A stretch of DNA of 28,345 nt, from positions 1 through 28,345 of the forward strand of contig CAWJKT010000032.1 of the NCBI GenBank assembly GCA_963843375.1. Direction: 5' to 3'. The translations under genes and the position numbers were made by a program. The notes under the pieces are model-generated. The model did no database searches, was not told where the DNA came from, and saw only the letters and a list, made by a program, of their open reading frames with translations. Every line of letters starts with the position of its first letter. The first letter of the stretch is position 1. This document shows positions 2,410-28,345 of this stretch, piece by piece. This DNA comes from an uncultured Pseudomonadota bacterium. GTDB taxonomy: Bacteria; Oederibacteriota; Muellerivitia; Muellerivitales; Muellerivitaceae.

Positions 2410-4866
2410 TTATCGTTGAATCAACAGCTTCATCACCTGGTGGGTTTCGGAGCTGCCGTTGTTTACGGATAACACTACATAATAAAGTCCGTTGGCCAAG
2501 TTCAGGTTTGCGTTGCCCCAATTCAGGGTGTATTTCCATTGTCCCACGGTGGCCGGGGGCGTGTCGTCCTCGAAAACCTTCCGGAAGGCCAGAGTAAAGA
2601 TCTTCACCTTCACCTGTGTGGCGGGGCTCGTCAAGTTATAATAAAAGCTTAAAGGCGTTCCGTCTTTTACCGGGTTGGGAAAAAGAACGCCGATGTTTTC
2701 AGGGGTGGGGGTCGGCGTCGGTGAAAAAGTGGGAGTGGGCGTGACTGTGGGTGTGCAGGTATGTCCCGCGCCGTCGGTGCAGGGAGAGTAAGTTGGGGTG
2801 GGGGTCGGGGTAATCTGGCGAACGAATTGCAGGACCGAGATGGAATAGGGCTGGAAGGTCACCGGGAAGGAAGTGGAGGCGCCGGTGAAGATGACCGTCG
2901 TCGGGGCCGTATCGGGGGCGGCATGGTAAGGCGTGGATCCGCTGGACACCCATTGGTAATTGGTGGAATTAAAAGTCCACCCATTAGCGTTACTGTTCGG
3001 GATAAAAGGCAGACCGGTGATCCAAGTATTGTAGGCATTCGTGGGGTTCTTGTTGATGACGATCATGGAAAAGATTCCGTCAGGCCGGTAGTCGGAATAA
3101 GCGGCAAATAGGGAGGCCGGAGCCCCTGCTCCGCTGAGGGTGGTGGAAATAAGCTGGTGAGCGTTGCTGTCGCCCGGAATGGCCCAGTCGCTAGTCATCA
3201 TCTGCATGGCCCAGTAAGTGGCATGGGGCTGATACTGGTAAGCGTCAGTGTTGACGCTCAGGTACCCCAGGTCCCCCCCGGTTGTATTGGTTTCGTCGCT
3301 TCCCCCGTTCAAGGTATCCCACAAGTTGGAATAACCACGGCTTCCGAAATCGGTGATGAAATGTCCCAGGGCGTCGGCCACCCAAAGCCCGTTACCCAGT
3401 TGGACCTGGAAATTCTCGTCCCCCGGATCCACGTTGTACTCGCTCATCAGCACGGGCACGGTCGCGGGACTTGCGACGCCTGCGCTGGAAAGCCAGCTGT
3501 CCAATTGGCTCGGGTAGGCATCCAGGGTGGAAGTGCTGCCCAAGGCCGAAGCGGCGGTGTAACCGCCGTAATTGGGATACCAGTGGTAATCAATGGCGGT
3601 AAGGTCAGCGATGGCCCCCTTCGTGCCGAGAATGCTGATAAAATCCTGCACGACCGAATTCCCGTCGTACATATTGGACGAGTCGCTAAAACCACCCGCC
3701 ACCGGGCCGGTGATGATGATGGTCTGGTCCACGGCTTTCATGGCGTTGTAATACTCGATGTAGCGCCTTACGTAATCTTGGGTGGGGATGGGCCCCCCCG
3801 TTTCCCAGTTGCCCTCGGTCTCGTTCCCGATCTGCCAGTAATGGATACCATAGCCTTTGACCACGTTGGCGTAATGCACCCAGGCCGCGGCTTCCTGGGA
3901 AGTGCCCGTGCCGAAATTGACGGTGATGAGCGGAACGGCATGGATCGGGCTGAAGGAATTAATGTAAGTCATGTAGGTCGCGAAATCCGTCATCCATGAA
4001 ATATTGTTCGTGGCCTGGGTGGAGGCGGGGTCCATGCTGGAAACCTCGACTTGGGTTTGGACCGATCCCGAGGGATTGTTGACCGAAATCTGGGTAGCGC
4101 CGTCATAGAGTTTCGCCTCGGCGATGGCATAAGCGCCCCCGGCACCGGCCGAACTGGCGGTCAACAAGATACGGAAATATTGGGCCGTCACCCCCGTGAA
4201 AGCCACCCCCTGGGTTCCTCCCGTGCCGGTTACCGTTCCCGCTGAAGTGGCGATCCATTTATTTGAGGAATTATCGGTTAAGGGGGGAGGCCAGCCGGTG
4301 GAGGGCCAATATTGGACCTGGAAAGAGGTAGCGTAAGGCGTTCCCCAGACAATGGTTATGGCGTTGACGAGTGCTGACGCCGATAGATCCAGCTCAGCCC
4401 ACTGCTGGTTTGGAAAATCAGTGTCGACATTGGACAACCAAGTGGTGGCGGTGTTGCCGTCGGTGATCTGGGAAGGGGCGCCGTTGCCGGCGGTGGTTCC
4501 CTCATAGGTTGCGTTATCCGGGAACCCGGTAGTGTAAGTGGTGTTGTCCGGCACCCAATAGCCGCTGGTATTGTAGGTTCCCGTGCCGTTCCAATGGTAA
4601 CCGTCCGAGGAAGAACCGCCTGGATAGCGCAAAAAATAATTTCCAGCGGCCTGTACCTGCGGCTGGACAGCCAAATTGTTGGTATTCCCGATCCAATAGG
4701 CCGTGTTATTGCCAAAGATGCTGATGGGATAAAAGGCGGTGAGGGTCGTCGCGGCGTTCACGGTGATGGTGGCGGGCAGGGCTTGGGCCTTTGAGTGACT
4801 GGTCAAACCCAACGCGAGGGTGAACAACATTCCCATCGCGAGTGAAGCGAGCCCCTTAAATTGCAT
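2410..4866 (-). CDS. Secreted clan GH-A glycoside hydrolase (GH51/GH79/GH44-like barrel) with inserted F5/8-type-C (CBM32-like) module, Pro/Thr linker and C-terminal sorting-like domain
   Basis: Start moved from 4902 to ATG 4866 (GGGAG at 4875-4879; signal peptide MQFKGLASLAMGMLFTLALGLTSHSKAQA). Motifs [21 protein letters not shown] (acid/base), DYHWY, MSEYN (nucleophile). Discoidin signature TDGNTATTW...WAELDL...YFRILLT. The exact GH family cannot be fixed by eye. Confidence 0.8.
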   Translation of the reverse strand: MQFKGLASLAMGMLFTLALGLTSHSKAQALPATITVNAATTLTAFYPISIFGNNTAYWIGNTNNLAVQPQVQAAGNYFLRYPGGSSSDGYHWNGTGTYNTSGYWVPDNTTYTTGFPDNATYEGTTAGNGAPSQITDGNTATTWLSNVDTDFPNQQWAELDLSASALVNAITIVWGTPYATSFQVQYWPSTGWPPPLTDNSSNKWIATSAGTVTGTGGTQGVAFTGVTAQYFRILLTASSAGAGGAYAIAEAKLYDGATQISVNNPSGSVQTQVEVSSMDPASTQATNNISWMTDFATYMTYINSFSPIHAVPLITVNFGTGTSQEAAAWVHYANVVKGYGIHYWQIGNETEGNWETGGPIPTQDYVRRYIEYYNAMKAVDQTIIITGPVAGGFSDSSNMYDGNSVVQDFISILGTKGAIADLTAIDYHWYPNYGGYTAASALGSTSTLDAYPSQLDSWLSSAGVASPATVPVLMSEYNVDPGDENFQVQLGNGLWVADALGHFITDFGSRGYSNLWDTLNGGSDETNTTGGDLGYLSVNTDAYQYQPHATYWAMQMMTSDWAIPGDSNAHQLISTTLSGAGAPASLFAAYSDYRPDGIFSMIVINKNPTNAYNTWITGLPFIPNSNANGWTFNSTNYQWVSSGSTPYHAAPDTAPTTVIFTGASTSFPVTFQPYSISVLQFVRQITPTPTPTYSPCTDGAGHTCTPTVTPTPTFSPTPTPTPENIGVLFPNPVKDGTPLSFYYNLTSPATQVKVKIFTLAFRKVFEDDTPPATVGQWKYTLNWGNANLNLANGLYYVVLSVNNGSSETHQVMKLLIQR

Positions 4867-4882
4867 GATCGAATCTCCCGGT

Positions 4883-4915
4883 AAAAAAAAAGCCGGACCC
4901 ATAAGGTTCGGCTTT
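4883..4915 (-). terminator. Intrinsic terminator-like hairpin with U9 tract between the two paralogous GH genes
   Basis: Minus strand AAAGCCGAACC-TTATG-GGTCCGGC followed by T9 (A run 4883-4891 on plus). Confidence 0.7.
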
Positions 4916-4951
4916 GAGGATTATAACCCTATTGATAACTGAAAAGCCTTC

Positions 4952-7873
4952 CTACTGGATGACGAGCAGTTTCATCACTTGTTGGGTCCGGGTGGCGCCG
5001 GTTTTGGTGGAAAGAACCACGTAATAAAGCCCGTTGGCCGCATCCAAGCCGCCCCGGCCCCATTCCAGGGTGTAAACATGGCCGCCCGGGGAGGTGGCTA
5101 GAGTTGGATCCTCATAAATCAGTCGGAAGGCCAAGGTAAAGACCTTCACGTCCACTTGGTCTGCGGTTTCCGGAACCTGGTAGGAAAGCTTCAAGGGCCC
5201 GTAGCCCGTATAGGGATTTGGGAAAACCCCGGTCAAACTCGGGGTGGAGGTGGGGGTCGGCGAGTAAGTCGAGGTGAATGTGTTGGTGACTGTGGGAGAA
5301 GAGGTGGCCGTCGAGGACGCCGTGAAGGTAAAGGTAAGCGTGGGAGTGGAAGTAACGGTGGCCGTCAAGGTCGGGGAACTCGTGGGAGTGTCCGTAGGCG
5401 TGGTGGTCGGGGTGGAGGTGGGGGTATTCGGCGGCGTGGGGGTAAAGGTACAGGTGTTCCCGAAAGCATCCATGCAGACGGTATTAGTGGCGGTGAGGGT
5501 GGGTGTGGAACTGGGCGTCGAGGTTGAGGTGGGGGTCGGCGAATTCGTGGGGGTTCCGGTGAGGGTGGCGGTGGGGGAAGCCGTTGAGGAATTGGTGGGG
5601 GTTCCGGAGGAGGTAGCGGTTGGTGAATTCGTCGGAGTACCCGTAAGGGTGGCCGTGGGACTATTTGTAGTGGAGGAAGTGGGCGTCCCCGTCAAGGTGG
5701 CGGTAGTCGTATTTGTGGGAGTCTTGGTGGCGGAAGGAGAGGGCGTACCTGTCGCGGTGCTGGTGGGGATGCCCGAGTTCGTGAATTGGATGACGTTGAT
5801 CGAAGAGGGGCTGAAAGTCACCGGGAAGGAACTGGAAACTCCTGTCAACAAGGCCGTTGTAGGCGCGGTATCCGGATTGGCGTTATAGGGTTCGGTGGTG
5901 GTCTGCCAGACATAATTGGTCGTATTGAAGGTCCAGGAATTGGCAGTATTATTGGGCACAAAGGGCCCGATATTGAGGGTCGTGGAATAGGAGTTCGCGG
6001 AATCTTCGTTGACCACCATCAGCGAAAGGATTCCATCCGGACGGTAGTCGGCGTAGGAAACCAAGGTCGCGGCGCTGCTGGTGGTGTTGACCAATTCGTG
6101 GGTATTGGAATCCCCCTGAATGGCCCAGTCGGTCGCCATCATTTGCATCGCCCAATAAGTGGCATGTTGTTGATATGGAGAGGAATTGTCCACGTAACCC
6201 AGGTCTCCGTCGGTCGCCACGGTATGGTCGCTTCCACCGTCTACCACGTCCCAGAGGTTGGCAAAGCCCGTCTTTCCGAAACCGGTAATAAAGGCGCCCA
6301 ACCAGTCGGCCAGCCAGAGACCGTTTTGCTCCTGCACGGTGGAATTAGAACCGTAGGCGTTAGCGTTGGAGTTGTATTCGCTCATGATCACCGGGATGCT
6401 GGAAAGGCTCAGGCCTACCGCGTTCAGCCAGTTACCGAGGGTTACAGGGAAAGCGGCCAGTTGGGCGGGCGAGGAAAAGCCCGCGGGGAAAGTAGTGAAC
6501 CCAGGGTACCAGTGGTAATCCAATCCCCCCAGGTCTGAAACCACGTTCCCCCCTGCCGCAGCCGGATTGTTGTAAAGGCGCAGGAGGAAATCCTGAATGT
6601 AGCTGTTGCCGTCGGCGGCGTTGGAGTTGGCATTAGGGGAGCCGCAAACCGGGCCCACAATCGTGATGGGAACCCCGTCGCTGGAAGCTTCCGCCTGCAT
6701 GGCGTTGTAATATTCAATGAATCTCCGGCCGTAATCGTTGGCGTTCATGGGCCCGCCCGTTTCCCAGTTGCCGTTGGTTTCGTTGCCGATCTGCCAGTAA
6801 TGGATACCGTAGCCCTGGACCGCGTTGGCGTAATGGACCCATGAAGCCGCCTCCGACGCTGTGCCCGTTCCCATGTTGACAGTGATCAGCGGGATGGCCT
6901 TGGGGGTAAAGGAATTCACCTCGGTCATATAAGTGTTGAAGTCGAAGCTTGTCTTATAAAAATTGGGGGAAAGGGGTTCGTCGGGAGAAGCGGAGGAGCA
7001 GGTTTGGCTGGAAGCCGGATCGGTACTGGAAGTAACGACCGTGTTTTGGTCGGCTTGAGTATCGGCGTTCTTGCTGACCACGGTGGCACCGTCAAGGACG
7101 TAAAGCTCGGCGATTGCGTAGGCCCCGCCCGCCCCGTTGGAACTGGCAGTCATAAGGATGCGGACATAACGGGTGGATTCGGCCGTGAGGGTGATTACTG
7201 TCGTTCCACCACTGGCCCCCGAGATAGCCCCTCCACCGAAAGTGGCCCAACCGCTCTCGTTGGAGGCCGTATAGGGAGTGGAGGCATCGGACGCCGTCCA
7301 ATATTCAACATAATAAGTGGTGGCATAGGGGTTGCCCCAAACGATGCTGACACCGCTGACTGCAGTCGTCGAGCTGGTGCCCGTCAAATCGATATAAGCC
7401 CATTGATAGTTCGGGAAGTCGGTATCCACGTTCGACATCCAGGTGGTGGCGCTGTTGCCGTCATCGATATTTGAGGGATAGGCGTAACTGGCGGAAGTGG
7501 TGCCCCGGTAAACTTGGCAACCCTGGAAGCCGGCGCCATAGGTCGTACCGCTGGGAACCCAATATTGGCTGGAGTTATAACTCCCTGAACTATTCCAGTG
7601 GAAATCATCCGAGGAAGAACCTCCCGGGTAGCGAAGAAAATAATTTCCCGCGGCTTGGACCTTGGCCGATACCGCTTCGTTGGTGGCGGCGTTGACCCAA
7701 TAGGCCAGGTTGTTCCCAAAAATATGGATGGGCACAAATGAGGTAATGGTGGATGCGCCGTTCACCGTGATAGAGGCAGGCGTTTGGGCGCTGGCGGGAA
7801 GATTGGTCCCCATCCAAAGCGTACCCAGGACGGTCACCAAGATGAGTTTTTTTCGGTGGAATTTTGAAATCAT
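4952..7873 (-). CDS. Secreted clan GH-A glycoside hydrolase, paralogue of 2410-4866, with inserted CBM32-like module, long Thr/Ser/Pro linker and C-terminal sorting-like domain
   Basis: Likely start ATG 7873 (AAGG upstream; signal peptide [30 protein letters not shown]); the ORF track extends to 7966. Long blocks are identical to the neighbour: [53 protein letters not shown]. Confidence 0.8.
5230..5770 (-). repeat. Thr/Ser/Pro-rich coding repeat ([16 protein letters not shown] units) forming the linker of the 4952-7873 protein
   Basis: Translation shows TATLTGTPT three times plus the variant TATSSGTPT; synonymous positions differ between copies. Confidence 0.8.
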
Positions 7874-8030
7874 TGAAACCTTGTTTTCACAAAAAATAAA
7901 AGCCGAAAATGGAATTTCCTTTTCGGCTCGGCCGCATAGTTTAACTGGAAAATATGCAGAAAACATGCCATTTCACATATATGCATTTCAAAGGTTACTT
8001 TAAAAATTATTTAAACACTTCCTCAGCACG

Positions 8031-8040
8031 AAAGCGCTTT
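8031..8040. promoter_or_regulatory. Palindrome AAAGCGCTTT, candidate LacI/GalR-family operator upstream of the tandem GH genes
   Basis: Perfect 10-bp CG-centred palindrome in the intergenic region ~160 nt upstream of ATG 7873. A variant AAAACGCTTT lies at 8088-8097, and the same core recurs at 9521-9532. Confidence 0.45.
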
Positions 8041-8186
8041 TCTGATATTTTCTGACGAAATAGTCGGGAATTATTTTTCAAAACCATAAAACGCTTTTTT
8101 CTAACCAAGCGTGATATGCATTGAAAGGATTCAAAAACAGGACGGATAAATGGTTGAAGGAAACGGCTTCAAAACAATTCGACCCG

Positions 8187-9416
8187 CTATTGCCGGATCA
8201 GGACTTTCATCGCCGTTTGATTTTGTTGGCCGCCGCTTTTCGAAACAACCACAAAATAATAAAGCCCATTGGCGAGATTCAAGTTCGCCAAATTCACGAC
8301 TTGAGTTTGGGTGCCTTGGCTGGTGGGTAAGCTGTCGTTTTCATAAATTTTCCGGAAAGCCAGGGTGAATATTTTCAACGAAACCTCATCCTGGGTTTGG
8401 TTGTTTTGATAACTAAAAGTTATCGTGCTCCCGGGGCTTGAAGCGCTGGGCCAGGGATTGGGATAGGCCAGCAACAGATGGGAAGGCGTGGCCGTCGGCG
8501 TGGGAGTGTCGGTCGGAGTGCAGGTGCTTCCGGGATAACCGCAAGGAGTGAGCGTGGGAGTGGGGGTAGGGCTCAAGGTCGGCGTGAAGGTCGCGGTTTC
8601 ACAGGCAGGAGAGTTAACCGAGGCGCTGAAACCGCTGCTGGTAAAGGGAACCCCCCCCGTCCTAATTTCGATGCCCGCTTCAATCGCCTCGAGAAACCAG
8701 GAGCTATTGATGTAACCGCGGTTCACGCTGTCATTGATGAAAGCCTGAATATCCACGTTATTGAATGAAGTAATATTTGTATCCGCCATATAGGCGATGT
8801 AGTTCCAACCGACATTCCCCTCGTTAAGTCTCCAGGTGGTGGTGGTATTACCGATGGTCAAACCATCGGCGACATAGGACCCGCCTGGTCCCGTCCCCGG
8901 CATATAATTCAGCCAAAGCATCAGTTCGGCGCTGTGGTTGTTGAGGCCTGTTCCTGTGGAGGATGTAGTGAACCAAATGTCATAGGCCGCGTCCCAAAGA
9001 TCGCTGCCCGTTTCGTTGGTAACGGCAATATTCCAACTGCTAGTGACGCAGGTAAGCGCACTCACCTCAATAGGAAGATTAGTTCCCGAACTGCAAGACC
9101 CATCGGATTGGCACCCGTAAACGATGGAAGGATAAGTGGCCACCGTGTCACTGCACTGAAAATTCCCTGCTGTCACCGAGAAATCTCCGGTGCTGTTGTT
9201 GATGGTCATGCATTGCGTGGTGGGGCAAGATCCCATATTCCAATAATTAGTCTGCACGTAGTAGGAAGGTGTGGTGCCCGTCGTGTTGATCGTATCGTAC
9301 TGGGCGCAAGTATTCGTGGTTTGGGCTTGGGCCGGACCGGCCGCCTCCAGAAGGCTCATCACCGTTAAAAGGAAAGGCAAACCAGCTATGGCTAAAATTG
9401 TTTTAAATTTTTTCAA
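8187..9416 (-). CDS. Secreted GH12 endoglucanase/xyloglucanase-like enzyme with Pro/Thr linker and C-terminal sorting-like domain
   Basis: GH12 motifs YVQTNYWN, YPSIVYGC, WDAAYDIWF, AELMLWL (nucleophile Glu) and EAGIEI (acid/base Glu). Start is TTG 9416 (MKKFKTILAIAGLPFLL..., AAGGA 4 nt upstream) or TTG 9428 as in the ORF track. Confidence 0.88.
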   Translation of the reverse strand: MKKFKTILAIAGLPFLLTVMSLLEAAGPAQAQTTNTCAQYDTINTTGTTPSYYVQTNYWNMGSCPTTQCMTINNSTGDFSVTAGNFQCSDTVATYPSIVYGCQSDGSCSSGTNLPIEVSALTCVTSSWNIAVTNETGSDLWDAAYDIWFTTSSTGTGLNNHSAELMLWLNYMPGTGPGGSYVADGLTIGNTTTTWRLNEGNVGWNYIAYMADTNITSFNNVDIQAFINDSVNRGYINSSWFLEAIEAGIEIRTGGVPFTSSGFSASVNSPACETATFTPTLSPTPTPTLTPCGYPGSTCTPTDTPTPTATPSHLLLAYPNPWPSASSPGSTITFSYQNNQTQDEVSLKIFTLAFRKIYENDSLPTSQGTQTQVVNLANLNLANGLYYFVVVSKSGGQQNQTAMKVLIRQ

Positions 9417-9520
9417 GTGTTCCTTCAATTCGTAAGCGGAAATAGATATATGTAGACGTCCAGAAAATATGCCACTAAAAGCCTAAAAAAGAAATGAAAA
9501 GCTCCAATTTAGGGGGGCTT

Positions 9521-9532
9521 AAAAGCGCTTTT
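9521..9532. promoter_or_regulatory. Palindrome AAAAGCGCTTTT, candidate LacI/GalR-family operator in the divergent GH12/GT9 intergenic region
   Basis: Perfect 12-bp palindrome with the same core as 8031-8040. Confidence 0.45.
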
Positions 9533-9607
9533 TCGTCATTGGACCGGTTTCAACGCCGTGTCTAACTCTTAGAAGCAGCCCCAAAAAACCTTTTAGTAAA
9601 TTTCGTT

Positions 9608-9613
9608 TATAAT
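9608..9613 (+). promoter_or_regulatory. Consensus -10 box 7 nt before the GT9 ATG (leaderless arrangement)
   Basis: TATAAT-CCAACCC-ATG with no Shine-Dalgarno sequence. Confidence 0.55.
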
Positions 9614-9620
9614 CCAACCC

Positions 9621-10523
9621 ATGGATAAACCGCATTCCTTGGTAATTGCCGCGGGTAGTTTGGGCGATTCCCTCTTTACCCTGCCCGCTCTCCGATTTTT
9701 GCAATCGCGCTCCGAGGTAACAGTAGCTGGAACGCAGTCTTTTCTTTCACTCGACTCCGATTTTTTGGGAATCAGCCGGGTAATTCCCCTTGATCCCCTT
9801 CTCCAAAAACTTTTGACGCCGGGGCCATTGGAAGTTTCAACTGTGGAATTTCTTTCCAAATTCAAAGAAGTTTATGTTTTTTTCAAGGAAAAGGACGAGG
9901 CCCTTTTCCAAAAACTGGTCTCGGTCAAAGGCCTCCATGTGCATCTGCCTCCCAAATCTTTCAAGGAGTTTCTGGAAGAAGCCCGTTGGGTAGCGGAATA
10001 TTGGCTGGAAACAGCCGCCGGGGAACCCGTTCCTTGGGAGTCGCCTTTCCGCCAATCAAAATTGCTGATTGACGATACCCTGCGCCAAAAGGGCGCTGAT
10101 ATCCTGCTTTCCCTCCGGCTGTCCTACCCCTTGGTGATTCACCCGGGAAGCGGAAGCCCCGAAAAAAACACACCACTTACCTTTTTTCGAACTGCCGCTG
10201 AGCGGGCCGGTGTGGAATCACAAAAACAGGTTTTGGTGGTCTGGGGCGAGGCCGAAGAAAAAAACTTAACGGCCATCCAGGAAGCGTTCGGAGGAATGGA
10301 CCATGTGCGGGTTCTTGCCGAACCCTTGCCCCTGAAACTCCTGGCAGCGGTCTTTTCCCAATCCGCCGCTTACCTGGGAAACGACAGCGGGGTCACCCAA
10401 CTGGCCGCCGCCTGCGGGCTGAGAACCTTCGCGGTTTTCAACACCACCGATTCCCGAATCTGGGGGCCCCAACAGTCGATCATTCTGGCCGCGATGAAAT
10501 CGCTTTATACCGGGGAAAAATAA
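9621..10523 (+). CDS. Glycosyltransferase family 9 (ADP-heptose:LPS heptosyltransferase-like)
   Basis: GSLGDSLFTLPAL at the N-terminus, IHPGSG...K, and YLGNDSGVTQLAAACG are GT9 signatures. Confidence 0.88.
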   Translation: MDKPHSLVIAAGSLGDSLFTLPALRFLQSRSEVTVAGTQSFLSLDSDFLGISRVIPLDPLLQKLLTPGPLEVSTVEFLSKFKEVYVFFKEKDEALFQKLVSVKGLHVHLPPKSFKEFLEEARWVAEYWLETAAGEPVPWESPFRQSKLLIDDTLRQKGADILLSLRLSYPLVIHPGSGSPEKNTPLTFFRTAAERAGVESQKQVLVVWGEAEEKNLTAIQEAFGGMDHVRVLAEPLPLKLLAAVFSQSAAYLGNDSGVTQLAAACGLRTFAVFNTTDSRIWGPQQSIILAAMKSLYTGEK

Positions 10524-10552
10524 AAAAAGAACTTTTGTCAGAGATCTGAGTC

Positions 10553-11473
10553 TTATTTTTTCTTGGGTTTGGACTTAGGGAAAATTTTCTTTCCCTTTTT
10601 ACCTTTGAGCGCTTCCACCAAAGCCGCTCCGATCTCCCCGGGACTAGGAGCCACCGTGATCCCCGCCGCAATTAAAGCTTCGATTTTTTCCTTGGCCGTT
10701 CCCTTGCCTCCGGAGACGATGGCGCCCGCATGGCCCATGCGCTTGCCTGGCGGGGCCGTGGCACCCGCGATAAAAGCCGCCACCGGTTTCTTCATATATT
10801 TCTTCACATATTGAGCCGCTTCTTCCTCGGCGCTTCCGCCGATCTCTCCGATCATGATGACCGCCTGGGTGTTCTTGTCGGCGTTGTAGGCTTCCAGGGT
10901 GTCTAGGTGGGTGGTTCCGATGATGGGGTCTCCGCCGATTCCGATACAGGTGGACTGGCCGAGTCCTAATTGGGTGACTTGCCAAACCGCCTCATAGGTA
11001 AGCGTTCCGGATCGGGAAACAATGCCGATTTTCCCCGGCTTATGGATATAACCCGGCATAATGCCGACCTTCGCCACGCCCGGGGTGATGATACCCGGAC
11101 AGTTGGGGCCGATCAGTCGGACCTCCGGGTGGCACTTCAAGATCGCCCGGACTTTGGCCATGTCATTGGCCGGAATGCCTTCTGTAATGCAGACGATCAA
11201 ATGGATTCCTGCTGCGGCGGCTTCCAGGATCGCGTCCGCGGCAAAAAGAGCGGGAACAAAGATGAGGGTGGTGTTGGCCCCTGTTTTCTCGACCGCTTCT
11301 TCGACTGTATCATAAACTTTGAAGCCTTCAATTTCCGTGCCGCCCTTCCCTGGCGTCACTCCCCCGACCATTTTTGTCCCGTATTCCCTGCAGGCTTTTG
11401 AATGGAAAAGACCCGCGGTTCCTGTGATGCCTTGGCAGATGACCTTCGCGTTTTTATCCAGATAGATACTCAT
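10553..11473 (-). CDS. sucD: Succinate--CoA ligase alpha subunit
   Basis: [34 protein letters not shown] and RMGHAGA (phospho-His). Start overlaps the sucC stop (ATGA). Confidence 0.98.
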
Positions 11474-12642
11474 GCTGGCACCCCTTTCGCAGCAGCGACC
11501 ACCGTTTTGGCGGCCGAATCCATGCTGGTTGCGAATTGATACTGAAGGGTAGATTGGGACAGGAGCTTCTTTCCCTGTTCCACGTTGGTGCCTTCCAGAC
11601 GGATAACCAAGGGCAAGGACAGCCCCACTTCCTTAGCCGCGTCCATGATTCCCTGGGCGATGACATCGCATTTCATGATGCCGCCGAAAATATTGACCAA
11701 AATCGCCTTCACTCGACTGTCGGATAAAATGATCTTGAAAGCCTGGGTAACAGCCTTGGTCGTAGCGCTTCCCCCTACATCCAGGAAATTGGCCGGGGCT
11801 CCCCCGAAATGTTGGATGGCGTCCGCCGTAGCCATGGCAAGTCCCGCCCCGTTCACTAGGCAGCCGATGTTTCCATCCAGCGAGATGTAAGAAAGTCCGT
11901 GCCCGGCGGCTTCCAATTCCCTTGGGTCCTCTTCGTCCGGGTCGCGCCAGGATTCGTACTCCTTATGGCGGGCCAGACCGTTGTCCTCGAAAGCCAGCTT
12001 GGCGTCCAGGCAATGGATATTACCGTCTTTTAAAACCACCAAAGGATTAACTTCGATCAAGGAGAGATCCAACTCAAGGAATACTTTCACCAAATCCTGG
12101 AAGAGTTTGGCGCCCTGATTGATCTTTTCTCGGGAGAGCCCCAAGTTTAGATGCAATTGCCGGGCCTGGTAAGGCTGAAGGCCCACAAGGGGGTCCACAA
12201 AAACCTTTTGGATGGCTTGAGGTTTATGAGCAGCCAATTCCTCAATCTCGGTGCCACCTTCGGCAGAGGCCAAAATCACCGGGCATTGGCGGGAACGGTC
12301 CAATACCACGCTGACGTAAAGCTCCTTGGTGTAATCGGCGGCGGGAGTGATGAATATCTTTTTGACCAGTTTTCCTTCCGGGCCGGTCTGGGGGGAAACC
12401 AGCCGCATGCCCAGAATATCACTGGCCTTTTGTCGGACTTCAATCTCGTCCTTGGCCAGCTTAACACCGCCGGCTTTGCCCCGGCCTCCCGCATGGATTT
12501 GGGCCTTGACTACCCAAGGTCCTGTAGGGAATTTTTTTAGCGCTTCGTCGACCTCCGAAAGATGCTTCACCAGCACCCCGGACGTGACGGGAAGTCCGTA
12601 CTTAGCGAATATTTCCTTGGCTTGGTATTCATGAAGTTTCAC
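11470..12642 (-). CDS. sucC: Succinate--CoA ligase (ADP-forming) beta subunit
   Basis: [56 protein letters not shown] start with AAGGAG upstream. Confidence 0.98.
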
Positions 12643-12715
12643 AATCGCTCCTTCGGATGGAATGGAACGGCCCGTGGCAAAACCCGGCTGATTTCAGTAT
12701 CGCGAGGATATGGTT

Positions 12716-14140
12716 TCAATGGATGTGGTTGTGATACTCCAAAAAAAGGCTTCGAAAGTCGTTAAAAATAACGAAAGCAAACAAACCGACGATCAGAACA
12801 ATTCCGACCTGCTGGAAAGCCATTTGAACCTTGATCGACACCGGGCTTCGCTTGATTCCCTCAATGAGGAAAATAACGATCTGACCCCCGTCCACCAATG
12901 GAATGGGAAGCAGGTTCATCAAAAAAAGAATTAGAGAAATAATGACCACCACGTTGAAGAGCTCAGTTAAACCATGGGAAGCCCTGTCATACATCAAACG
13001 TAGGATTACCACCGGCCCGCCCACGGCTGATTTTAAAGCCACCTTCCCTGTCACCAGCTTATAAATGCCCCCCATATAAGTCGCGCTAAAGTTGACGGAA
13101 AACTGGATGGAATCGGCCACCGCCTGGAACAATGAGACTTTAACAATCTCCTCGTTCCCAGCTTTCGCGTTCTCAATTTCAGCGGGTTGGATTCCGATCA
13201 CTTTATAATCGCCGGTGTCGATGCGGTTTACAGCAACATGAAGGGTTTTCTGGCCGCGCTTAAAATCGATTTGGATGGGATCTTGCTTGGCGCTTCGGAC
13301 TAAATAGGATAATTGGTTCCAATCCGATACCTTTTGGCCGTTGATACTTAATATTTCATCATTGTCCTGCATACCTGCGTTTCGGGCCGGCTGGCCTATG
13401 GCCGCGAGAATCACGGGAGAAACAATCGAATTGATACCCAAAACCGGTTCTTCCGGGGGAGGAGGGCCGAAACCCAGCCAAGCGAGGAGTCGAAATAAAA
13501 GGTTGTCGGAGGAAGCCCAGACGCTCAAGATCTTGGCTGGACGCGTAAGGGTGGTCTTAAAAATTTTCCCCTTTCTATCGACCTCCACCACAACCGAATG
13601 GCCGTAATCCGGCTTGGTGTCAGTAAAAGCGGTAAAAAGGTTTTTAACTTCGACCTGATTGACTTTCAACAAATGATCGCCGCTTTGGAGACCCGCTTTT
13701 TCAGCCAGGCTTCCAGGCGGCACGAAACCAATTATCGGTTTTTCCAAAGGCGTGATTTCACCCTGAACCAACAATAGGCAGGTCATGACCACGAGCGCGG
13801 TGGCCAGGTTCATTAAAGGCCCGCCCAGCGCGATAATGACCCTTTTCCACCAAGAAACGAAAAGAAAATCACCGGGCTCCGGCGGCTTGGCGTTCATTTC
13901 TTCAATCGACTTACCACTCGCATCCCCCCCTTTGGGAAGGCAAAACCCCCCCAGAGGCAAGGCCCGGATGGCATAAACGGTTCTGCCCCATTTGCGGGAA
14001 ATCAAAGTCGGGCCGAACCCGATGGCGAATTCATCGACTTCCACTCCGCAAAAACGCATGGCCACGAAGTGGCCGCTTTCGTGGATATAGATCATGAAAC
14101 TGAAAGCCAGAATGGTTTCGATAAGATGCACTAGGTTCAT
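12716..14140 (-). CDS. rseP: RIP metalloprotease RseP (site-2 protease, M50, two PDZ domains)
   Basis: HESGH zinc motif, FAIGFGP, PLGGF, GGPLMN, two PDZ-like repeats and NLLPIPLVDGG; lies directly after dxr as is typical. Confidence 0.93.
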   Translation of the reverse strand: MNLVHLIETILAFSFMIYIHESGHFVAMRFCGVEVDEFAIGFGPTLISRKWGRTVYAIRALPLGGFCLPKGGDASGKSIEEMNAKPPEPGDFLFVSWWKRVIIALGGPLMNLATALVVMTCLLLVQGEITPLEKPIIGFVPPGSLAEKAGLQSGDHLLKVNQVEVKNLFTAFTDTKPDYGHSVVVEVDRKGKIFKTTLTRPAKILSVWASSDNLLFRLLAWLGFGPPPPEEPVLGINSIVSPVILAAIGQPARNAGMQDNDEILSINGQKVSDWNQLSYLVRSAKQDPIQIDFKRGQKTLHVAVNRIDTGDYKVIGIQPAEIENAKAGNEEIVKVSLFQAVADSIQFSVNFSATYMGGIYKLVTGKVALKSAVGGPVVILRLMYDRASHGLTELFNVVVIISLILFLMNLLPIPLVDGGQIVIFLIEGIKRSPVSIKVQMAFQQVGIVLIVGLFAFVIFNDFRSLFLEYHNHIH

Positions 14141-14282
14141 TCAAAATCCTTGGGTTTACTTTTATTTACGGCGAAGCGGGAATTTATCCCTTAAATTTAG
14201 GTTTTAACCTTTGCTTTTGGAAGAGGTGTTTCTTGAATTGGAACGTTTCCGGCCCAATTCCACAATCCTAGAGTAAAAAAGA

Positions 14283-15431
14283 TTATATATTCGAGGCTTC
14301 TTCACGAGCCCAACGGTCGGCGCTCAATATACCATCCAGGGTGCCGTTTGTCAGGGGCCGGTATTTTCGTAATGTTTTTTCGATGATTTTGGGGATTTGG
14401 ACAAAGGTAATTTCCCCTTTTAAAAACCGTCCCACCGCCACCTCGTTAGCGGCGTTTAACACCGCCGGATAAGTCCCTCCTTTTTCGCCCGCCTCATAAG
14501 CTAGATCCAGGCAGGGAAATTTCTTGCGATCCGGTTTTTCAAAATGAAGCTGTCCGATCCGGGCAAGATCCAACCGATTGACCGGCGAATTGGCCCGCGC
14601 CGGAAAAGTGAGGGCGTACTGGATGGGAATTTGCATATCCGTGGTTCCCAATTGGGCCAGTACCGAGCCGTCGATATATTCCACCATGGAATGAATGATT
14701 GATTCGGGATGGATAACAATGTCGATTTTATGAAAGGGGACGTTGAACAAATAATGCGCCTCGATCACTTCCAAACCCTTATTCATGAGTGTCGCCGAAT
14801 CAATGGTAATCTTGGGCCCCATGCGCCAGGTGGGGTGGTTGAGGGCTTGTTTTAAGGTAATTTTATAAAAATGTTTCTTGTCCAAACTGCGGAACGGTCC
14901 GCCCGAAGCCGTGAGAAGAATTTTATGAATTTCATCCGAATGGCGGGAACCCACCAGGCATTGGAATACCGCGCAATGTTCGCTGTCCACTGGCAGGATT
15001 TTGGAACCTGACTTTTGGGCGGCTTTCGTCACAACTTCCCCCGCCATCACCATGGTCTCTTTGTTCGCCAGGGCGATATCTTTGCCCCTTTGAATGGCGG
15101 TCAAGGTAGGCTTTAACCCTGCCGCGCCCACAATGGCGGAAAGGACCAAGCTCGCTCCAGATTCACCAGCAACCGCCTCCACGCCCTCTGGTCCCCCTAG
15201 AATCCGGGTGGATGTGCCTTTCGTCAGGGACTTTAATTGGGGGAAAAAACTTTCATCCATCATCGCGGCCATTTTGGGTTTGAATGTTTTTATCTGTTTC
15301 GCCAGTTCTTTAGCGTTCCTGTAAGCGGTTAGACCCACTACTTGGAAAGAAGGGTGCAGTTTATGGACGACTTTGAGGGTTGAAACACCGATGGAACCGG
15401 TCGAACCCAAAATGGCGATTTTTCTTGGCAT
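14283..15431 (-). CDS. dxr: 1-deoxy-D-xylulose-5-phosphate reductoisomerase
   Basis: ILGSTGSIG, LANKE, PVDSEH, TASGGPF, HPTWRMGPKITIDSATLMNKGLE. Confidence 0.98.
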   Translation of the reverse strand: MPRKIAILGSTGSIGVSTLKVVHKLHPSFQVVGLTAYRNAKELAKQIKTFKPKMAAMMDESFFPQLKSLTKGTSTRILGGPEGVEAVAGESGASLVLSAIVGAAGLKPTLTAIQRGKDIALANKETMVMAGEVVTKAAQKSGSKILPVDSEHCAVFQCLVGSRHSDEIHKILLTASGGPFRSLDKKHFYKITLKQALNHPTWRMGPKITIDSATLMNKGLEVIEAHYLFNVPFHKIDIVIHPESIIHSMVEYIDGSVLAQLGTTDMQIPIQYALTFPARANSPVNRLDLARIGQLHFEKPDRKKFPCLDLAYEAGEKGGTYPAVLNAANEVAVGRFLKGEITFVQIPKIIEKTLRKYRPLTNGTLDGILSADRWAREEASNI

Positions 15432-15473
15432 GAAATGAAGATCCTGAAATAGAGGGGTAACCGAAAGCGGGAG

Positions 15474-15482
15474 ATTATAACA
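15474..15482 (-). promoter_or_regulatory. Extended -10 promoter (TGnTATAAT) for dxr-rseP
   Basis: Minus-strand TGTTATAAT ~43 nt upstream of the dxr ATG. Confidence 0.6.
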
Positions 15483-15490
15483 CTCGTTCC

Positions 15491-15530
15491 AAAATAAAAA
15501 AACGAATGGTCGGATACCGCCCGCTCGTTT
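15491..15530 (-). terminator. Imperfect terminator hairpin downstream of the GH5 gene
   Basis: Minus strand AAACGAGCGGGCGG-TAT-CCGACCATTCGTTT followed by TTTTATTTT. Confidence 0.5.
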
Positions 15531-15709
15531 AAAAACCTTAACGGAATGTTAAAACGGCTTACTTTCTCTGACTTTATCTAAGGGGCTTGGGATAGGCTTC
15601 ATTCCATCCTAAAAAAGGACTTCCAACAAGGACTTTCGTCTGAATTAAACACCCTTGTGGCGATTCCACAAGACGAACTAAAGATTCAGGCCCGTTAGCG
15701 GCCAAGACA

Positions 15710-18700
15710 TTATCGCAAAAGGAGGAGTTTGGTCACCGCGTGGTAGCCGATATGGTTGGAGATCACCACGTAATAAAGGCCGCTGGCCAGGGGCGTGCCC
15801 CACTTGTCACTGAGGATCAAAGGTATACGCCATGTCTTGGCGGTGGTACTTCCGCTGCTTACGGAAGCCGTCACGCCCGGCGACGAAGTGGAGTACTCGT
15901 TGTTCTGCACTTCCCGGAAGGCCACCGTGAAGACCTGCACCGTCATCGAATCTGACGCCTGACTCGTTGTCGCCGCCACCGTGACCGGTTCTGTGCCTGT
16001 CGCCGGATTCGGGTATACAACGGGCGTTGAACCCGGTTGAAGCGTGGAAGTGGGTGTCGCGGACGCCGTGGTACTCCCCGAACCGATCGTGATTGTCGCC
16101 CCGCCAACCGGCATATTGGCGAATAGAACCGGCTCGCCGTTGCTCCCCGCACCGCTGGTGATACTGAAGGCGTAGTTCCCTGCCGCCGCGCTGCTGGAGA
16201 AGTTCACCACCACTTCATAAGTCACCGCCCCGCTGCTGGCGGGAATGGTATTGCTCGACGTTAAGCTAAAGGTCGCCGTCGTTCCACTGAAACTGGCGGT
16301 GGAGATCACCGTTCCGTCGTCCACAAGCGATATGGAAGTGATCCCCGTGGGCGGAACCCCTGATTCGCTCAGGGTCAAACTGCTTAAAGTCACCACATTG
16401 GTACCCGGATTGGTCAGTTGGATCTGCTGTATCGTCACGCTGGAAGCTCCCGCCACTTGGGTGGAATTCGAAGGAGGACTCGTTCCCTGCGAAGCCTGGA
16501 CCGTCACTTGAGTGGGTGTTCCGGTTACGGTGATGGTGAAGGTAGCGGTGTAAACAGCCGTAGCGGTTGTCGTATTGGTCGCGGTATTCGCCAAGGTATT
16601 GGTAGGTGTGGCTGTAGGGGTTTGAGTGGCCGTAGTGGCAAAGGTATTGGTGAATGTGGAAGTGGTGGTATTGGTAACCGTATTCGTCAAGGTGTTGGTG
16701 GGTGTGGAAGTCCTGGTTTCGGTTGCCGTGTTGGTTGGGGTACTGGTTGGGGTGTTTATGGGTGTGTTGGGAAGACTTGCCGTGGGCGTCAGGGAGGCGG
16801 TGTTGGTGGCGGTCTCGGCAAAGGTACTGGTGGGCGTGGATGAAGCCGTATTCGTGGCGGTATTCGCGAAAGTGCTTGAAGGTGTCAACGTCGTAGTTGA
16901 AGAAGCCGTATTCGTTGGTGTAGTGGTGGCCGTGAAAGTCGTGGTGAGCGTCGCCGTACTTGAAGGTGTTGAAGTAGCCGTATTGGTCGCGGTGTTCGCC
17001 AAGGTGCTGGTGGGCGTCAAGGTGGTCGTATTCGTGGCGGTCTTGGTCGGGGTTTGGGTCGTCGTGTTGGTCGGGGTATTGGTCGCCGTCATGGTCGTCG
17101 TATCCGTGGCGGTGTTGGTGCCGGTATTCGTGGACGTGAAGGTTGCCGTACTCGTGGCCGTCTTGGTGGGAGTCGAGGTAGGCGTCGAGGTCAAGATGGT
17201 TCCCGTGGGGCTCAAGGTCGGCGTATCGCTGATAGTGGGGGTGGCGGTATTGGTCGTCGTTGAGGTGGCGGTACCGGTAGCCGTATTGGTCGCCGTCAGC
17301 GTGATGGTGGAAGTGGCGGTGTTGGTAGCTGTGGCAGTGGTGGTACGGGTAGTGGTGGAAGTGGCCGTATTGGTCGAAGTATTCGTCAGGGTATTAGTGG
17401 GGGTAGCTGTCGGGGTATAGGAGGGTGAAGTGGTGGCGGTACGGGTAGCGGTATTAGTCGTGGTCCCCGTCGCGGTAGTGGTTACCGTATTGGTCGAAGT
17501 GCTGGCTGAAGTGCTCGTGGAAGTCGCCGTCAGGCTGTTGGTAACGGTTAATGTCGGCGTGGAGGTCAAGGTAGAGGTCGGCGTCGCAGTAGCGGTCTTA
17601 GTCAAAGTGTTTGTCAGAGTGGCCGTAGGGCTATTGGTTGTCGTATTGATCGGTGTCGCGGTAGCTGTCAAAGTCATGGTGCTTGTGGCCGAACTGGTCA
17701 ACGTGTTTGTAATGGTCGGGGTGGGACTGTTAGTGGGGGAAGAGGTGAAAGTACGGGTGGCAGTGTTGGTGGTCGTAGCCGTTGGACTGCTGGTAGGGGT
17801 ATTTGAGGAGGTATTAGCCACCGTATTGGTAGGTGTGGGAGAGGAAGTTCGAGTGGGCGAAGAGGTGGAAGTACTTGTTCCCGTATTCGTAGAAGTAGCC
17901 GTGGGGGTGCGGGTTGCGGTGAAAGTAGGGCTGGGAGTCGGGGTAAAGGTATTGGTGGAGGCGACAACGGAGGGTGTGGCGGTGGGCGGTGCGGTTCCCG
18001 CTAAACAAACATTGTCGATCCAGAATCCAAAAGTGGAAGGGGCTCCTTCGGTCTCCCATTGGAGCGAACTCACCCAGGTAATGGCCTGGGACAAACTATA
18101 AGTCACTCCGCCGATGACAGGCGGACAGGTTCCCGCACCCCAATCTTGGCACTCGCAAGCGGTGACGGGAACGGAAACAAATTGCCAAGCATTGGCGGTA
18201 TTGATGTTGATGTCGAACCCATATTGGTTGTCCGTGCCTCCCCCGCCCACCAAGGACCCCATCCAGCTTAATGGCGCGACCGCGACGTTGGGGTTATTGA
18301 GGTTGAACCGCAAGGTCACGGGAGCGACGGTGGATTGGACATAGAAGGAAATATTCGTCACCCAGCTTAAGTTGGAATATCCGGTGTTCATCTGGGTCGC
18401 CAAGGCGAAGCCGGCATAAGTGGTTACGCCCCCGTCCGTGACACAGCCGTTACAAGCCCAACCGCCTGTCACATGGGCCGAATAGGTACTGGGCGAAACG
18501 GCCGCAATGCTGTTATCCATGATGACGGAACAAGGGACGCCCCCTGGGCAACTGACAGTGGACATGGCCGGGGTGACCGGGGTGTTCGATGCGGTCGTCC
18601 AGTCATAGGTGAACCAATCGCCGTTGGTATTGTTGTAAAAGGTGTCTTCAGTGAAGTTTGAGACTTCCCAGCATGAGGCGGGCGTCGGCGTGAAAGAAGG

Positions 18701-19876
18701 GGTGTAGGTGGGACCACCGGGGTTCGGTAGACAACCATACCCGTTCGCTTCGGCCAGCCAACTGACGACGGATACACCATGGAAGGAAGTGGAAGTAAAG
18801 GGTAAAGCCCAGTTGGCATTTACCACAGGAATCTCGGTGGTCTCTGCGATAGCCCAAGCGGTCGCGCTCATGGTAACCCCGGCTTGATTGCCTCCGTCTA
18901 GCCAGGGGATAAAGCTTGTATCGAAGGCGATGCCTCCGGTGGGGGCAGTGTCGCTGCCGGTGGTGCCGGGACCGAATTCTCCGCACATGATGGCGTAAGT
19001 GGCCGCAAAAGAACCGATATTGGTGTTCCAACTGGCGGTGCTGATGCCATAATTGGTGTCATAAATATGGGTATCGTAAAGAATTCCTTCCCCGCTTCCC
19101 GTGTCCGTCAAGGCATAAGTCGGAAGTAGGTTGGTAAAGGTTTGGCAATAATTGAGACCTCCGGCAATGACAACATTGTTGGCGGTGGCGGTGGAATTAT
19201 TGGAGAGAGGCGTGCCTAACCCAGCCGCAGTCCGGACGGTGTTCAAAAGGCTTTTAAAACCCGGGGTAGTAAAACCCTCGCTGGTGGTTCCTCCATTAAG
19301 CCAAAGGGAACCTGAGGAGGGGTAAGGTTCATTGAAGAGGTCAAACAACACGGCCGGATTATTCGCATATCGGGCCGCCACGCTGGCCCAAAAAGTGGTG
19401 CTGTTGCTGTCCGGCATGGAATACTGTTGCGTGGAACTGCCCCAGTTTCCATCGCCCGACCAGTGAAGGTCCAGGATCACGTAAGCGTTGTTTTCCTCGC
19501 AGATCGTGACGATTTGATCCACTAGGTTTCGGTAGCTCCAATCATAGGTTTGCCACCTGTCCTGGCTGAGAGGAAGGCGGATGCAATTGGCCCCCCAGGT
19601 GGAAATGGCGAAAGCGACCGTGGCCGTAATTCCAGCGCTTGTGGGGCCGTCATTATTGCTGAATTCCAAACCGTCCACATCCACGCCCTTTAGGACAACG
19701 GTACAACCACCACTTGCTTCAACGATATGGTTTCCAGAGATTTTAAGTTGGGCTGATGTTGCCCATAGGGTCGCCGGAAGTGAAATTCCAGCAAGGAGGC
19801 CTAACTGAACGAATAAAAAATTCGCCCAGGAACGGCGGGGTTTGATTTGAATCGATTTTTGGAGCGTATTTTTCAT
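15710..19876 (-). CDS. Large secreted GH5 glycoside hydrolase (cellulase family): GH5, CBM11-like beta-sandwich, ~490-aa Thr-rich stalk, Ig-like domain and C-terminal sorting-like domain
   Basis: GH5 motifs [29 protein letters not shown] (acid/base), THIY and GEFG (nucleophile). The second module ([10 protein letters not shown]...ISFYV...FWIDNV) is CBM11/CIA30-like. Likely start ATG 19876 (AAGG upstream); the ORF track extends to 19915. Confidence 0.88.
16510..17990 (-). repeat. Degenerate (T-x)n coding repeat with TNTA-type 4/8-residue periodicity inside the GH5 gene
   Basis: Thr occupies nearly every second position ([32 protein letters not shown]); GCCGTATTGGT-like words recur on the plus strand. 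Confidence 0.9.
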
Positions 19877-20049
19877 TATCACCTTATAAATAACGGCTTC
19901 AACCGAAAGAAACAAAAAGGTTTGTGGTTACAGGAAGTTTACCACTCTCCTTAAAAGCTTGTAAAAAACTATTAAAAATTATTTCAATCAAAAGGAAACA
20001 ACTTTCACATTAAAACAACGACTCCTGCACAAATAAGCTGGTTTTAAAT

Positions 20050-20103: not shown

Positions 20104-22044
<1,941 letters not shown>

Positions 22045-27798: not shown

Positions 27799-28345
27799 TC
27801 AGTAAAACTCGACGTTATCAAACCAAAAGTCGGTATAGGTGGTGGCACCCTCGCCATTATCCCCGAACTTCCACAAGAGAAAAATAACTTGTTGAGGGAA
27901 TATCGCATTCGACGCAAAAGTGTCTCCCGAATCGTTACCGTAGCCGCTGTCCGCTTTAAAACTGGAGAACAGAAAACTAACCGGCTCCCAACCATCATTC
28001 ACGGCGGGATTCGTTGTCGGAAGATTGCCAGGTATCCAAAAATAGTTGTAGCAATTGGTACTAAATGGGGGCGGGACAAGTACCGCCTTGATCCGTAGTA
28101 GAAGGAACCGTATAGGCGGTCGCCAAAGCAAATCGTTTTTGAGGATTATTATCTCCGACGGTCACCCCTCCGGCCTGTGCTGTAGGGCAGGATCTTGACA
28201 TCCATCCGAATGCCCTTATAAGGGAAAGAACCGGCAGGAGGTTGAGTAATATTGTACCAATCAGAACTTGGAAGGTTTGAAGAGTCATTTTTTAAGAAAC
28301 CAAATACTTCCATGGCCGGATAGGTCGTGGGCAGGGGATCGGTTT
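27799..28345 (-). CDS. 3' part of a hypothetical protein ending in a CBM11/CIA30-like beta-sandwich; two apparent +1 indels (~28174, ~28069); 5' end outside the window
   Basis: Three frames join into TDPLPTTYPAMEVFGFLKNDSSNLPSSDWYNITQPPAGSFPYKGIRMDVKILPYST / AGGVTVGDNNPQKRFALATAYTVPSTTDQGGTCPAP / FSTNCYNYFWIPG...GWEPVSFLFSSF...DFWFDNVEFY. Ends in a TGA-TAG double stop followed by a terminator. Confidence 0.6.

Follow-up and report, generated by a model that had tools for sequence, protein, structure and literature searches.

The window analysed here, 28,345 nucleotides (nt) of contig CAWJKT010000032.1 (assembly GCA_963843375.1), encodes four secreted proteins, glycoside hydrolases (GH) or resembling them, whose C-terminal ends share a domain of 94–106 residues. 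An initial annotation had likened this domain to the type A C-terminal domain (CTD) of type IX secretion system (T9SS) cargo, and our follow-up confirmed the four tails as type A T9SS-like CTDs on proteins with signal peptides. The features concerned, which include a predicted immunoglobulin-like (Ig) sandwich and the loop word FT.AFR, are as follows.

2410..4902, minus strand: glycosidase-like secreted protein of 830 residues, with signal peptide, barrel, inserted F5/8 domain, Thr/Pro linker and CTD (weak GH51-like match)
2413..2694, minus strand: CTD 1, 94 residues (predicted Ig β-sandwich, predicted local distance difference test score (pLDDT) 92; TIGR04183 25.6 bits, cut-off 23)
2581..2598, minus strand: FTLAFR, the β3–β4 loop of CTD 1 (profile alignment and model)
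4952..7966, minus strand: 1004-residue paralogue of the 2410..4902 enzyme in which the Thr/Ser/Pro linker is longer (51% identity across 724 columns)
4955..5236, minus strand: CTD 2, 94 residues, with FTLAFR at 5123-5140
8187..9428, minus strand: secreted GH12 enzyme of 413 residues with linker and CTD (domain scan)
8190..8489, minus strand: CTD 3, 100 residues, with FTLAFR at 8352-8369
15710..19915, minus strand: secreted GH5 enzyme of 1401 residues with CTD, Ig-like segment and a very long stalk rich in Thr (domain scan)
15713..16030, minus strand: CTD 4, 106 residues, with FTVAFR at 15914-15931
15714..17645, minus strand: 3′ tract of the GH5 gene, covering stalk and CTD (shares 97.9% identity across 1969 columns with the 3′ end of a GH8 gene located on contig C11 of the assembly)

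The terminal domain of the window enzymes

The shared domain lies where the initial annotation had placed it, each tail forming the C-terminal end of a minus-strand open reading frame (ORF). CTDs 2–4 are 49, 40 and 33% identical to CTD 1, and the alignment has 18 invariant columns, including PNP, FT.AFR, A.GLYY and a near-terminal Lys. Signal peptides and Thr/Pro linkers were likewise found as described: each of the four proteins satisfies a rough rule for signal peptides, and Thr, Ser and Pro make up 45–70% of the sequence upstream of the tail. The assignment of the enzymes to three GH families held for GH12 and GH5, but the other two are paralogues of each other whose family is unassigned, their GH51-like matches being weak.

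Scoring of the tails against family models, as suggested with the initial annotation, gave a divided answer. On TIGR04183, CTDs 1–4 scored 25.6, 19.4, 16.8 and 18.1 bits against the cut-off of 23, so that one of the four passes; none passes the PF18962 cut-off, and FlgD_ig (PF13860) matched at 17–27 bits, the highest score being 27.3 (cut-off 27). When a class profile of 44 sequences was compared with the PDB, the top match was the CTD of PorU (E 9.6e-6), followed by FlgD and the translocon-bound CTD 8glk_D (both E 0.004). The AlphaFold model of the CTD (pLDDT 92) is a β-sandwich of six long strands and a short N-terminal strand, and a fold search with this model retrieved the CTDs of PorU (Z 10.3, root-mean-square deviation 2.6, 92 residues), mirolase (Z 9.3), PorZ (Z 9.2) and NucA (Z 9.0), with 18–24% identity in the structural alignments. 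A search of 1.84 billion proteins yielded 747 matches at E ≤ 1e-10; among the best 150 of these, 146 were terminal and four were internal FlgD-like multi-repeat domains. The near-terminal Lys is conserved in 97% of 190 sequences collected with the class profile, and the ESM Atlas returned CTD/FlgD clusters only, with few taxon records. The claimed resemblance to a type A CTD is thus borne out by the Ig-sandwich model, by PorU as the best sequence match in the PDB and by the strictly terminal position.

The FT.AFR word sits between model strands at residues 27–34 and 39–45, and is aligned with YDFTGR of PorU in the profile comparison with the PDB. Its supposed invariance was not upheld: across the 190 sequences, a set biased toward the motif by the profile used to collect it, the composition is F83/Y15, T97, any residue, A81, F90 and R100%, and orthologues within the same genus carry FTLACR and FTLSFR. 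At the Gly position of the β3–β4 loop, Phe is present in 35 and Tyr in one of the 36 members of this class in the genome, compared with Gly in 35 of 47 other tails. The word corresponds to the L-β3-β4 motif of PMC11285876, which reports that secretion of RgpB by Porphyromonas gingivalis is blocked when F695-D-M-N-G-R-R701 is replaced or the loop deleted, and by G699R, G699P having had no effect in earlier work. According to the same source, a Tannerella CTD without the loop Gly is not handled by P. gingivalis; the mirolase CTD of T. forsythia lacks the conserved β3–β4 Gly, as the tails here do.

The tail class in the genome and the phylum

The genome (4.05 Mb, 80% complete) was scanned as a set of 38,444 six-frame ORFs. 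A hidden Markov model (HMM) of the four window tails found 36 tails at E ≤ 1e-3, and its iteration gave 83 terminal domains at E < 1e-6, counted after removal of weaker and internal matches, of which 36 have the motif in relaxed form. FT.AFR therefore marks one among several CTD classes of this genome (36 of 83 tails), the other 47 tails including fragments or FlgD-like domains of uncertain role. The genome-wide checks suggested with the initial annotation bore out a terminal domain on secreted proteins: all 36 motif-class tails terminate at the stop codon, with a single copy per carrier, and 30 of 35 carriers have a signal peptide versus 239 of 719 background ORFs, as judged by a rough rule and not by a dedicated predictor. 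Among all ORFs, [FY]T.AFR words occur 31 times, 30 of them within 90 residues of the stop. Cargo domains were scanned for 35 of the 36 carriers. Carbohydrate-active proteins account for 21, including 16 with a glycosidase or lyase domain (GH5 x4, GH30 x4, GH12 x2, GH8, GH9, GH28, GH44, GH62 and the polysaccharide lyase PL4), three with malectin only and two with the F5/8 insert; the remainder are three proteases, four β-propeller proteins and seven with an unmatched passenger. In some carriers the tail is placed after genuine binding modules, such as CBM3 and malectin.

A quick tree of the CTDs of this genome recovers the FT.AFR class as one clade (SH-aLRT 91). Further expanded clades of CTDs without a neighbouring barrel gene are the YNSAGE (7 members), Y.VAGELV-type (10) and WP.PY-type (5) clades, each having its own loop sequence with the Gly kept. 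By eye, Gln directly follows the probable signal-peptidase site in about 21 of 35 FT.AFR carriers, a likeness to the Q-rule of Bacteroidetes.

The comparison covered 99 genomes of the phylum: 32 of the same order, 25 of families f13–f23 and 42 of families f3–f12. The four-tail HMM matches 96 of the 99. The degenerate DNA pattern [IV][FY][TS]xAF[RS]x[IV] was matched 390 times in the order (median 12; reversed control 5), 68 times in f13–f23 (median 2) and eight times in f3–f12, which is about control level; no genome had more than 4 matches among 151 belonging to the phylum of a Bacteroidetes bin. Thirty tails from four f13–f23 families show looser forms of the word, and 16 of them have Phe where the Gly would stand. 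A pattern demanding Lys or Glu after the Arg, by which the motif would be confined to the order, was dropped, as looser forms such as YSSAFRL occur in other families. Judged by these patterns, the motif appears restricted to part of the phylum. The lineage specificity proposed for the tag is sustained for the order, where the motif is expanded, and in looser form for f13–f23, but not phylum-wide, given the background level in f3–f12; its export role is inferred. GH5 genes are present in 29 of 32 genomes of the order, 24 of 25 of f13–f23 and 19 of 42 of f3–f12. We place no weight on the rank correlation between motif and GH5 counts (rho 0.59) or on a Fisher test of the barrel adjacency described below (p 0.002), since neither paralogues nor related genomes are independent of one another.

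The GH5 tail tract is part of a wider pattern. In the relative G054, the counterparts of the GH5 and GH8 genes are identical over their last 974 nt, and between the two species GH5/GH8 tail identity is about 70%; within-genome values may be inflated by polishing of near-identical repeats. Repeated gene conversion is likely the simplest reading, and from these alignments the tails appear to be homogenised within species between unrelated enzymes. Further near-identical 3′ tracts (95–99.9% over 0.8–2.0 kb) link CTD genes with different N-termini in this genome:

C11:305004-314170: near-identical 3′ tracts
C1:138545-145803: near-identical 3′ tracts
C14:168037-172617 with C7:106187-114769: near-identical 3′ tracts

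Loci L246 and L247 of the relative G068 also carry such tracts, and one CTD is common to four G068 genes (GH5, two GH30 and one BNR-type).

The initial annotation had considered the gene order unlike that of Bacteroidota. A FastTree phylogeny built on 91 LepA sequences puts the window protein and 11 phylum relatives outside a six-member clade of the Fibrobacterota–Chlorobiota–Bacteroidota (FCB) group (support 99), in agreement with that view; this tree samples neither Fibrobacterota nor Elusimicrobiota, and one gene cannot place a phylum. A LepA scan of named genomes gave no close relative, and no 16S gene was found in the assembly. The nearest named relatives of SprA, the T9SS pore protein, are from Elusimicrobia, in which SprA-like proteins of 1500–1800 residues were noted in P0350, P0351 and P0354. 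Candidate phylum FCPU426 is a possible host, consistent with the data. Goldbacteria/FCPU426 are siblings of Elusimicrobia, rich in GH5, 8, 9 and 44 (PMC7031533), and the main text of that paper does not mention T9SS. A literature search, with subscription papers and supplements outside its range, found nothing on T9SS parts in FCPU426/Goldbacteria or Elusimicrobia, and the accessible parts of PMC8542988, PMC12204202, PMC13755416 and bioRxiv 10.1101/2025.01.14.632903 held nothing relevant.

Secretion machinery and barrel genes

The search for T9SS parts that the initial annotation had called for recovered the pore and the barrels, but neither motor nor sortase. A SprA-like gene is present in this genome and SprA matches occur in 92 of the 99 phylum genomes; the intact SprA of G054 (2029 residues) scores 226.6 bits on TIGR04189 (cut-off 200). 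The PorV family gave 24 matches, 12 of them over the cut-off, and 19 ORFs (about 19 barrels) were used. Profile searches for GldL and GldM found neither in any of the 99 genomes; as a positive control, both were matched in a Flavobacteriales genome, one of five FCB bins, and the proteins of that genome used as queries found no match here, although a divergent motor may exist. GldK is represented by two partial matches (86 bits versus a cut-off of 350). The PorU model matches CTDs only in this genome, and the C25 peptidase family PF01364 has no match in the 32 genomes of the order. Eight of the 99 genomes, all outside the order, do encode C25 peptidases (G021, G023, G027, G032, G033, G076, G096 and G098). 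SprA above the cut-off with no GldL or GldM match was also seen in the draft genomes G100 (Bacteroidetes), G101 (Calditrichia) and G102 (Gemmatimonadales); lack of the motor may be widespread beyond the gliding Bacteroidota, since three of five FCB bins show it. In this genome the SprA pieces on C15 adjoin a skp-lpxD-lpxC-fabZ-lpxA cluster, and downstream of them is encoded a large protein of repeats whose CTD is of the Gly type.

None of the 36 FT.AFR genes has a barrel gene directly downstream, whereas 11 of the 47 other CTD genes do. The relatives G054, G068 and G046, where the score served as a proxy for the FT.AFR class (16 of 82 were read directly), have a barrel downstream of 0 of 82 matches at E ≤ 1e-9 and 2 of 33 weaker matches. 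In four other families there was no barrel within 1.5 kb downstream of 30 tails, a test with no positive control. Barrel-paired tails are long-branched singles in the quick tree. Because no FT.AFR gene has its own barrel while 11 of 47 other CTDs do, it is likely that one shared barrel, to which the tails would bind, serves the FT.AFR class. Four barrels stand alone:

C3:37654-38532: stand-alone barrel, best candidate, scoring best on PorV (73 bits)
C3:27805-28830: stand-alone barrel
C3:125231-126163: stand-alone barrel
C15:34105-35145: stand-alone barrel

Orthologues of the first occur in 27 of the 31 further genomes of the order (58–82% identity), and its model (pLDDT 72) has the PorV chains 8gl6_F (TM 0.77) and 6h3i_F as first matches. 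The segment C3:27805-38532 has a stand-alone PorV-family barrel at either side of a conserved block made up of an unknown protein, LptF-like and LptD-like genes (both read by eye) and uvrA, in an order kept in G054, G068 and G046; the first of these two barrels scores best as PorV2.

Elsewhere in the window, a GT9 heptosyltransferase-like gene lies at 9621-10523 (plus strand), between the enzyme cluster and sucDC, and an ORF end at 27799-28345 (minus strand), cut by the contig edge, resembles by eye a carbohydrate-binding module. The dnaK gene at 20104-21941 is split over two frames; assembly indel errors are suggested, since sprA is broken and other genes are split too. Promoter and terminator scans gave signal no higher than that of shuffled sequence.

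Proposed export route, alternatives and known systems

The FT.AFR tails are real and form a variant of the type A CTD that is restricted to a lineage; the T9SS-like system they serve is partial, and its host falls outside the FCB clade as sampled. The tail resembles a T9SS tag in the available tests, whereas the system departs from T9SS in that neither motor nor sortase was found. We consider it quite probable that the domain is an export tag, and sequence and models together suggest that the tagged enzymes are likely exported. The mechanism as a whole, in which a type A-like CTD sends Sec-exported enzymes via a SprA-like pore onto a shared PorV-family barrel by means of a meaningful loop, is on balance the reading we favour, with reservations. 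The enzyme would reach the periplasm via Sec, and its CTD would bind loops of a barrel docked at SprA. One stand-alone barrel, for which C3:37654-38532 is the best candidate, would serve all 36 members, since these genes have none of their own, and the Phe-Arg loop would be retained under a common reader, because that reader must accept each member. As no PorU was found, the CTD would stay attached, and the enzyme may either leave the cell intact or remain on the barrel, with its Thr-rich stalk as a tether. New enzymes would likely enter the route by recombination onto an existing stalk-plus-CTD cassette.

Several observations weigh against this mechanism. One of the four window tails reaches the TIGR04183 cut-off and FlgD_ig scores similarly, while many unrelated Ig folds, Vpr first, tie in Z with the CTDs, mostly at lower identity. 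Among the non-FT.AFR tails, 36 of 47 likewise have no neighbouring barrel, and the 0 of 36 amounts to a single evolutionary event, because the class is one clade. The candidate barrel is one of four and lies far below the PorV equivalog cut-off (73 versus 250 bits), the SprA-like gene of this genome (C15:110180-121036) is in at least three pieces in the assembly, and a type II secretion-like locus is present. The three FCB drafts with SprA and no GldL/GldM match, whose completeness is not given, temper the significance of the motor-less state here. In PMC10994853, Lauber et al. describe the conserved motifs of type A CTDs as specifying the fold with no contact to the translocon, and Flavobacterium johnsoniae without its GldLM motor as having cargo trapped at SprA.

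The nearest alternative retains the export tag and takes FT.AFR to be an inherited fold variant, an ancestral CTD having been amplified and homogenised and being accepted by its shape, by the translocon or by any barrel. The single clade and the within-species homogenisation would fit, as would the plastic, hydrophobic pocket described by Lauber et al. (PMC10994853), the loop variants FTLACR, YTTCMR and YTTAAR, and two genomes of the family that have many tails and no exact motif. Nonetheless, we regard it as unlikely, in that Arg (100%) and Thr (97%) are held across the motif-biased 190 sequences while adjoining columns vary freely, mean column identity in the 44-row tail alignment is just 38%, and in P. 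gingivalis this loop governs both secretion and compatibility between species (PMC11285876). Alternatively, the enzymes could cross the outer membrane by a type II secretion-like system, the CTD later docking them on a surface barrel. A gspF/E/D/G-like locus at C14:82795-92754 and the failure to find GldL/GldM in 99 genomes speak for this route, but its 770-aa secretin, recognised solely from length and score pattern, was seen in about 8 of the 31 genomes of the family, of which all 31 have tails and 28 have SprA, and the other secretin of the genome belongs to a type IV pilus locus (C1:228850-239101); we consider this route improbable.

That the tail is a FlgD-type Ig module for carbohydrate binding or spacing, with no role in export, is suggested by the FlgD_ig matches at 17–27 bits, by the four internal FlgD-like domains among the best 150 database matches and by carriers that mostly act on carbohydrates. 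We give this little credence, however: the domain is single and terminal in all 36 carriers, three proteases and four β-propeller proteins among them, and comes after true binding modules. Least probable of all is the dockerin-like module, proposed initially as an alternative, that would assemble the enzymes on a scaffold protein. Cellulosome parts do carry one tail on many unrelated glycosidases, but dockerins are helical calcium-binding repeats, and the dockerin reading is unsupported because the modelled fold is an all-β Ig sandwich. Homology also leads to T9SS CTDs, and the domain scans matched no dockerin family, a cohesin search not having been made.

Extending the favoured mechanism, we tentatively raise a broader possibility, which we doubt more than we believe: a motor-less, sortase-less type IX relative outside FCB in which the β3–β4 loop acts as a barcode and every expanded CTD class has a shared PorV-family barrel of its own as reader, the Phe-Arg class being a plant-polysaccharide lane fed by recombination onto the cassette. 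According to PMC11285876, published in 2024, no T9SS genes occur beyond the FCB group. Given a non-FCB phylum in which 92 of 99 genomes have SprA, cellulases bearing the tag number in the dozens and neither motor nor sortase is recognisable, the question of a minimal T9SS becomes testable, as does that of the β3–β4 loop as a specificity code. The findings also suggest an exit route for the enzymes of a diderm cellulose degrader without an evident cellulosome.

Compared with the T9SS of F. johnsoniae and P. gingivalis (SprA-PorV, GldKLMN, PorU), a SprA-like giant barrel and PorV-family barrels occur throughout this phylum. Here, however, GldL/GldM were not found in 99 genomes, a PorU-type peptidase was not found in the order, and there are about 19 PorV-family paralogues in place of one shuttle. 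With the type A CTD of Bacteroidota (TIGR04183/PF18962; PorU 6ZA2, PorZ 5M11, NucA 8GLK, mirolase 8QB1) the tails share the terminal Ig sandwich of 90–100 residues behind a signal peptide and passenger, the PNP start, the GxY strand, the near-terminal Lys, and a range of many unrelated cargoes, none with its own barrel gene. They differ in having Phe in place of the β3–β4 Gly with the next Arg fixed, in three of four scoring under the family cut-off, in the lack of a recognisable cleaving PorU and in a host outside the sampled FCB clade. The Ig-like domain of FlgD (PF13860) has the same fold and similarly weak scores, but the tails here are single, terminal and borne by secreted enzymes, with a CTD-type PNP start and terminal Lys. 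A parallel for a shared barrel comes from type B CTDs with PorP/SprF shuttles: according to PMC12618676, three orphan type B cargoes of F. johnsoniae share the Fjoh_1677 shuttle. There, as here, cargo with an adjacent barrel exists beside orphan cargo sharing a stand-alone barrel, whereas in the present system the tails are type A, the barrels are those of the PorV family, and 36 members make up the orphan class.

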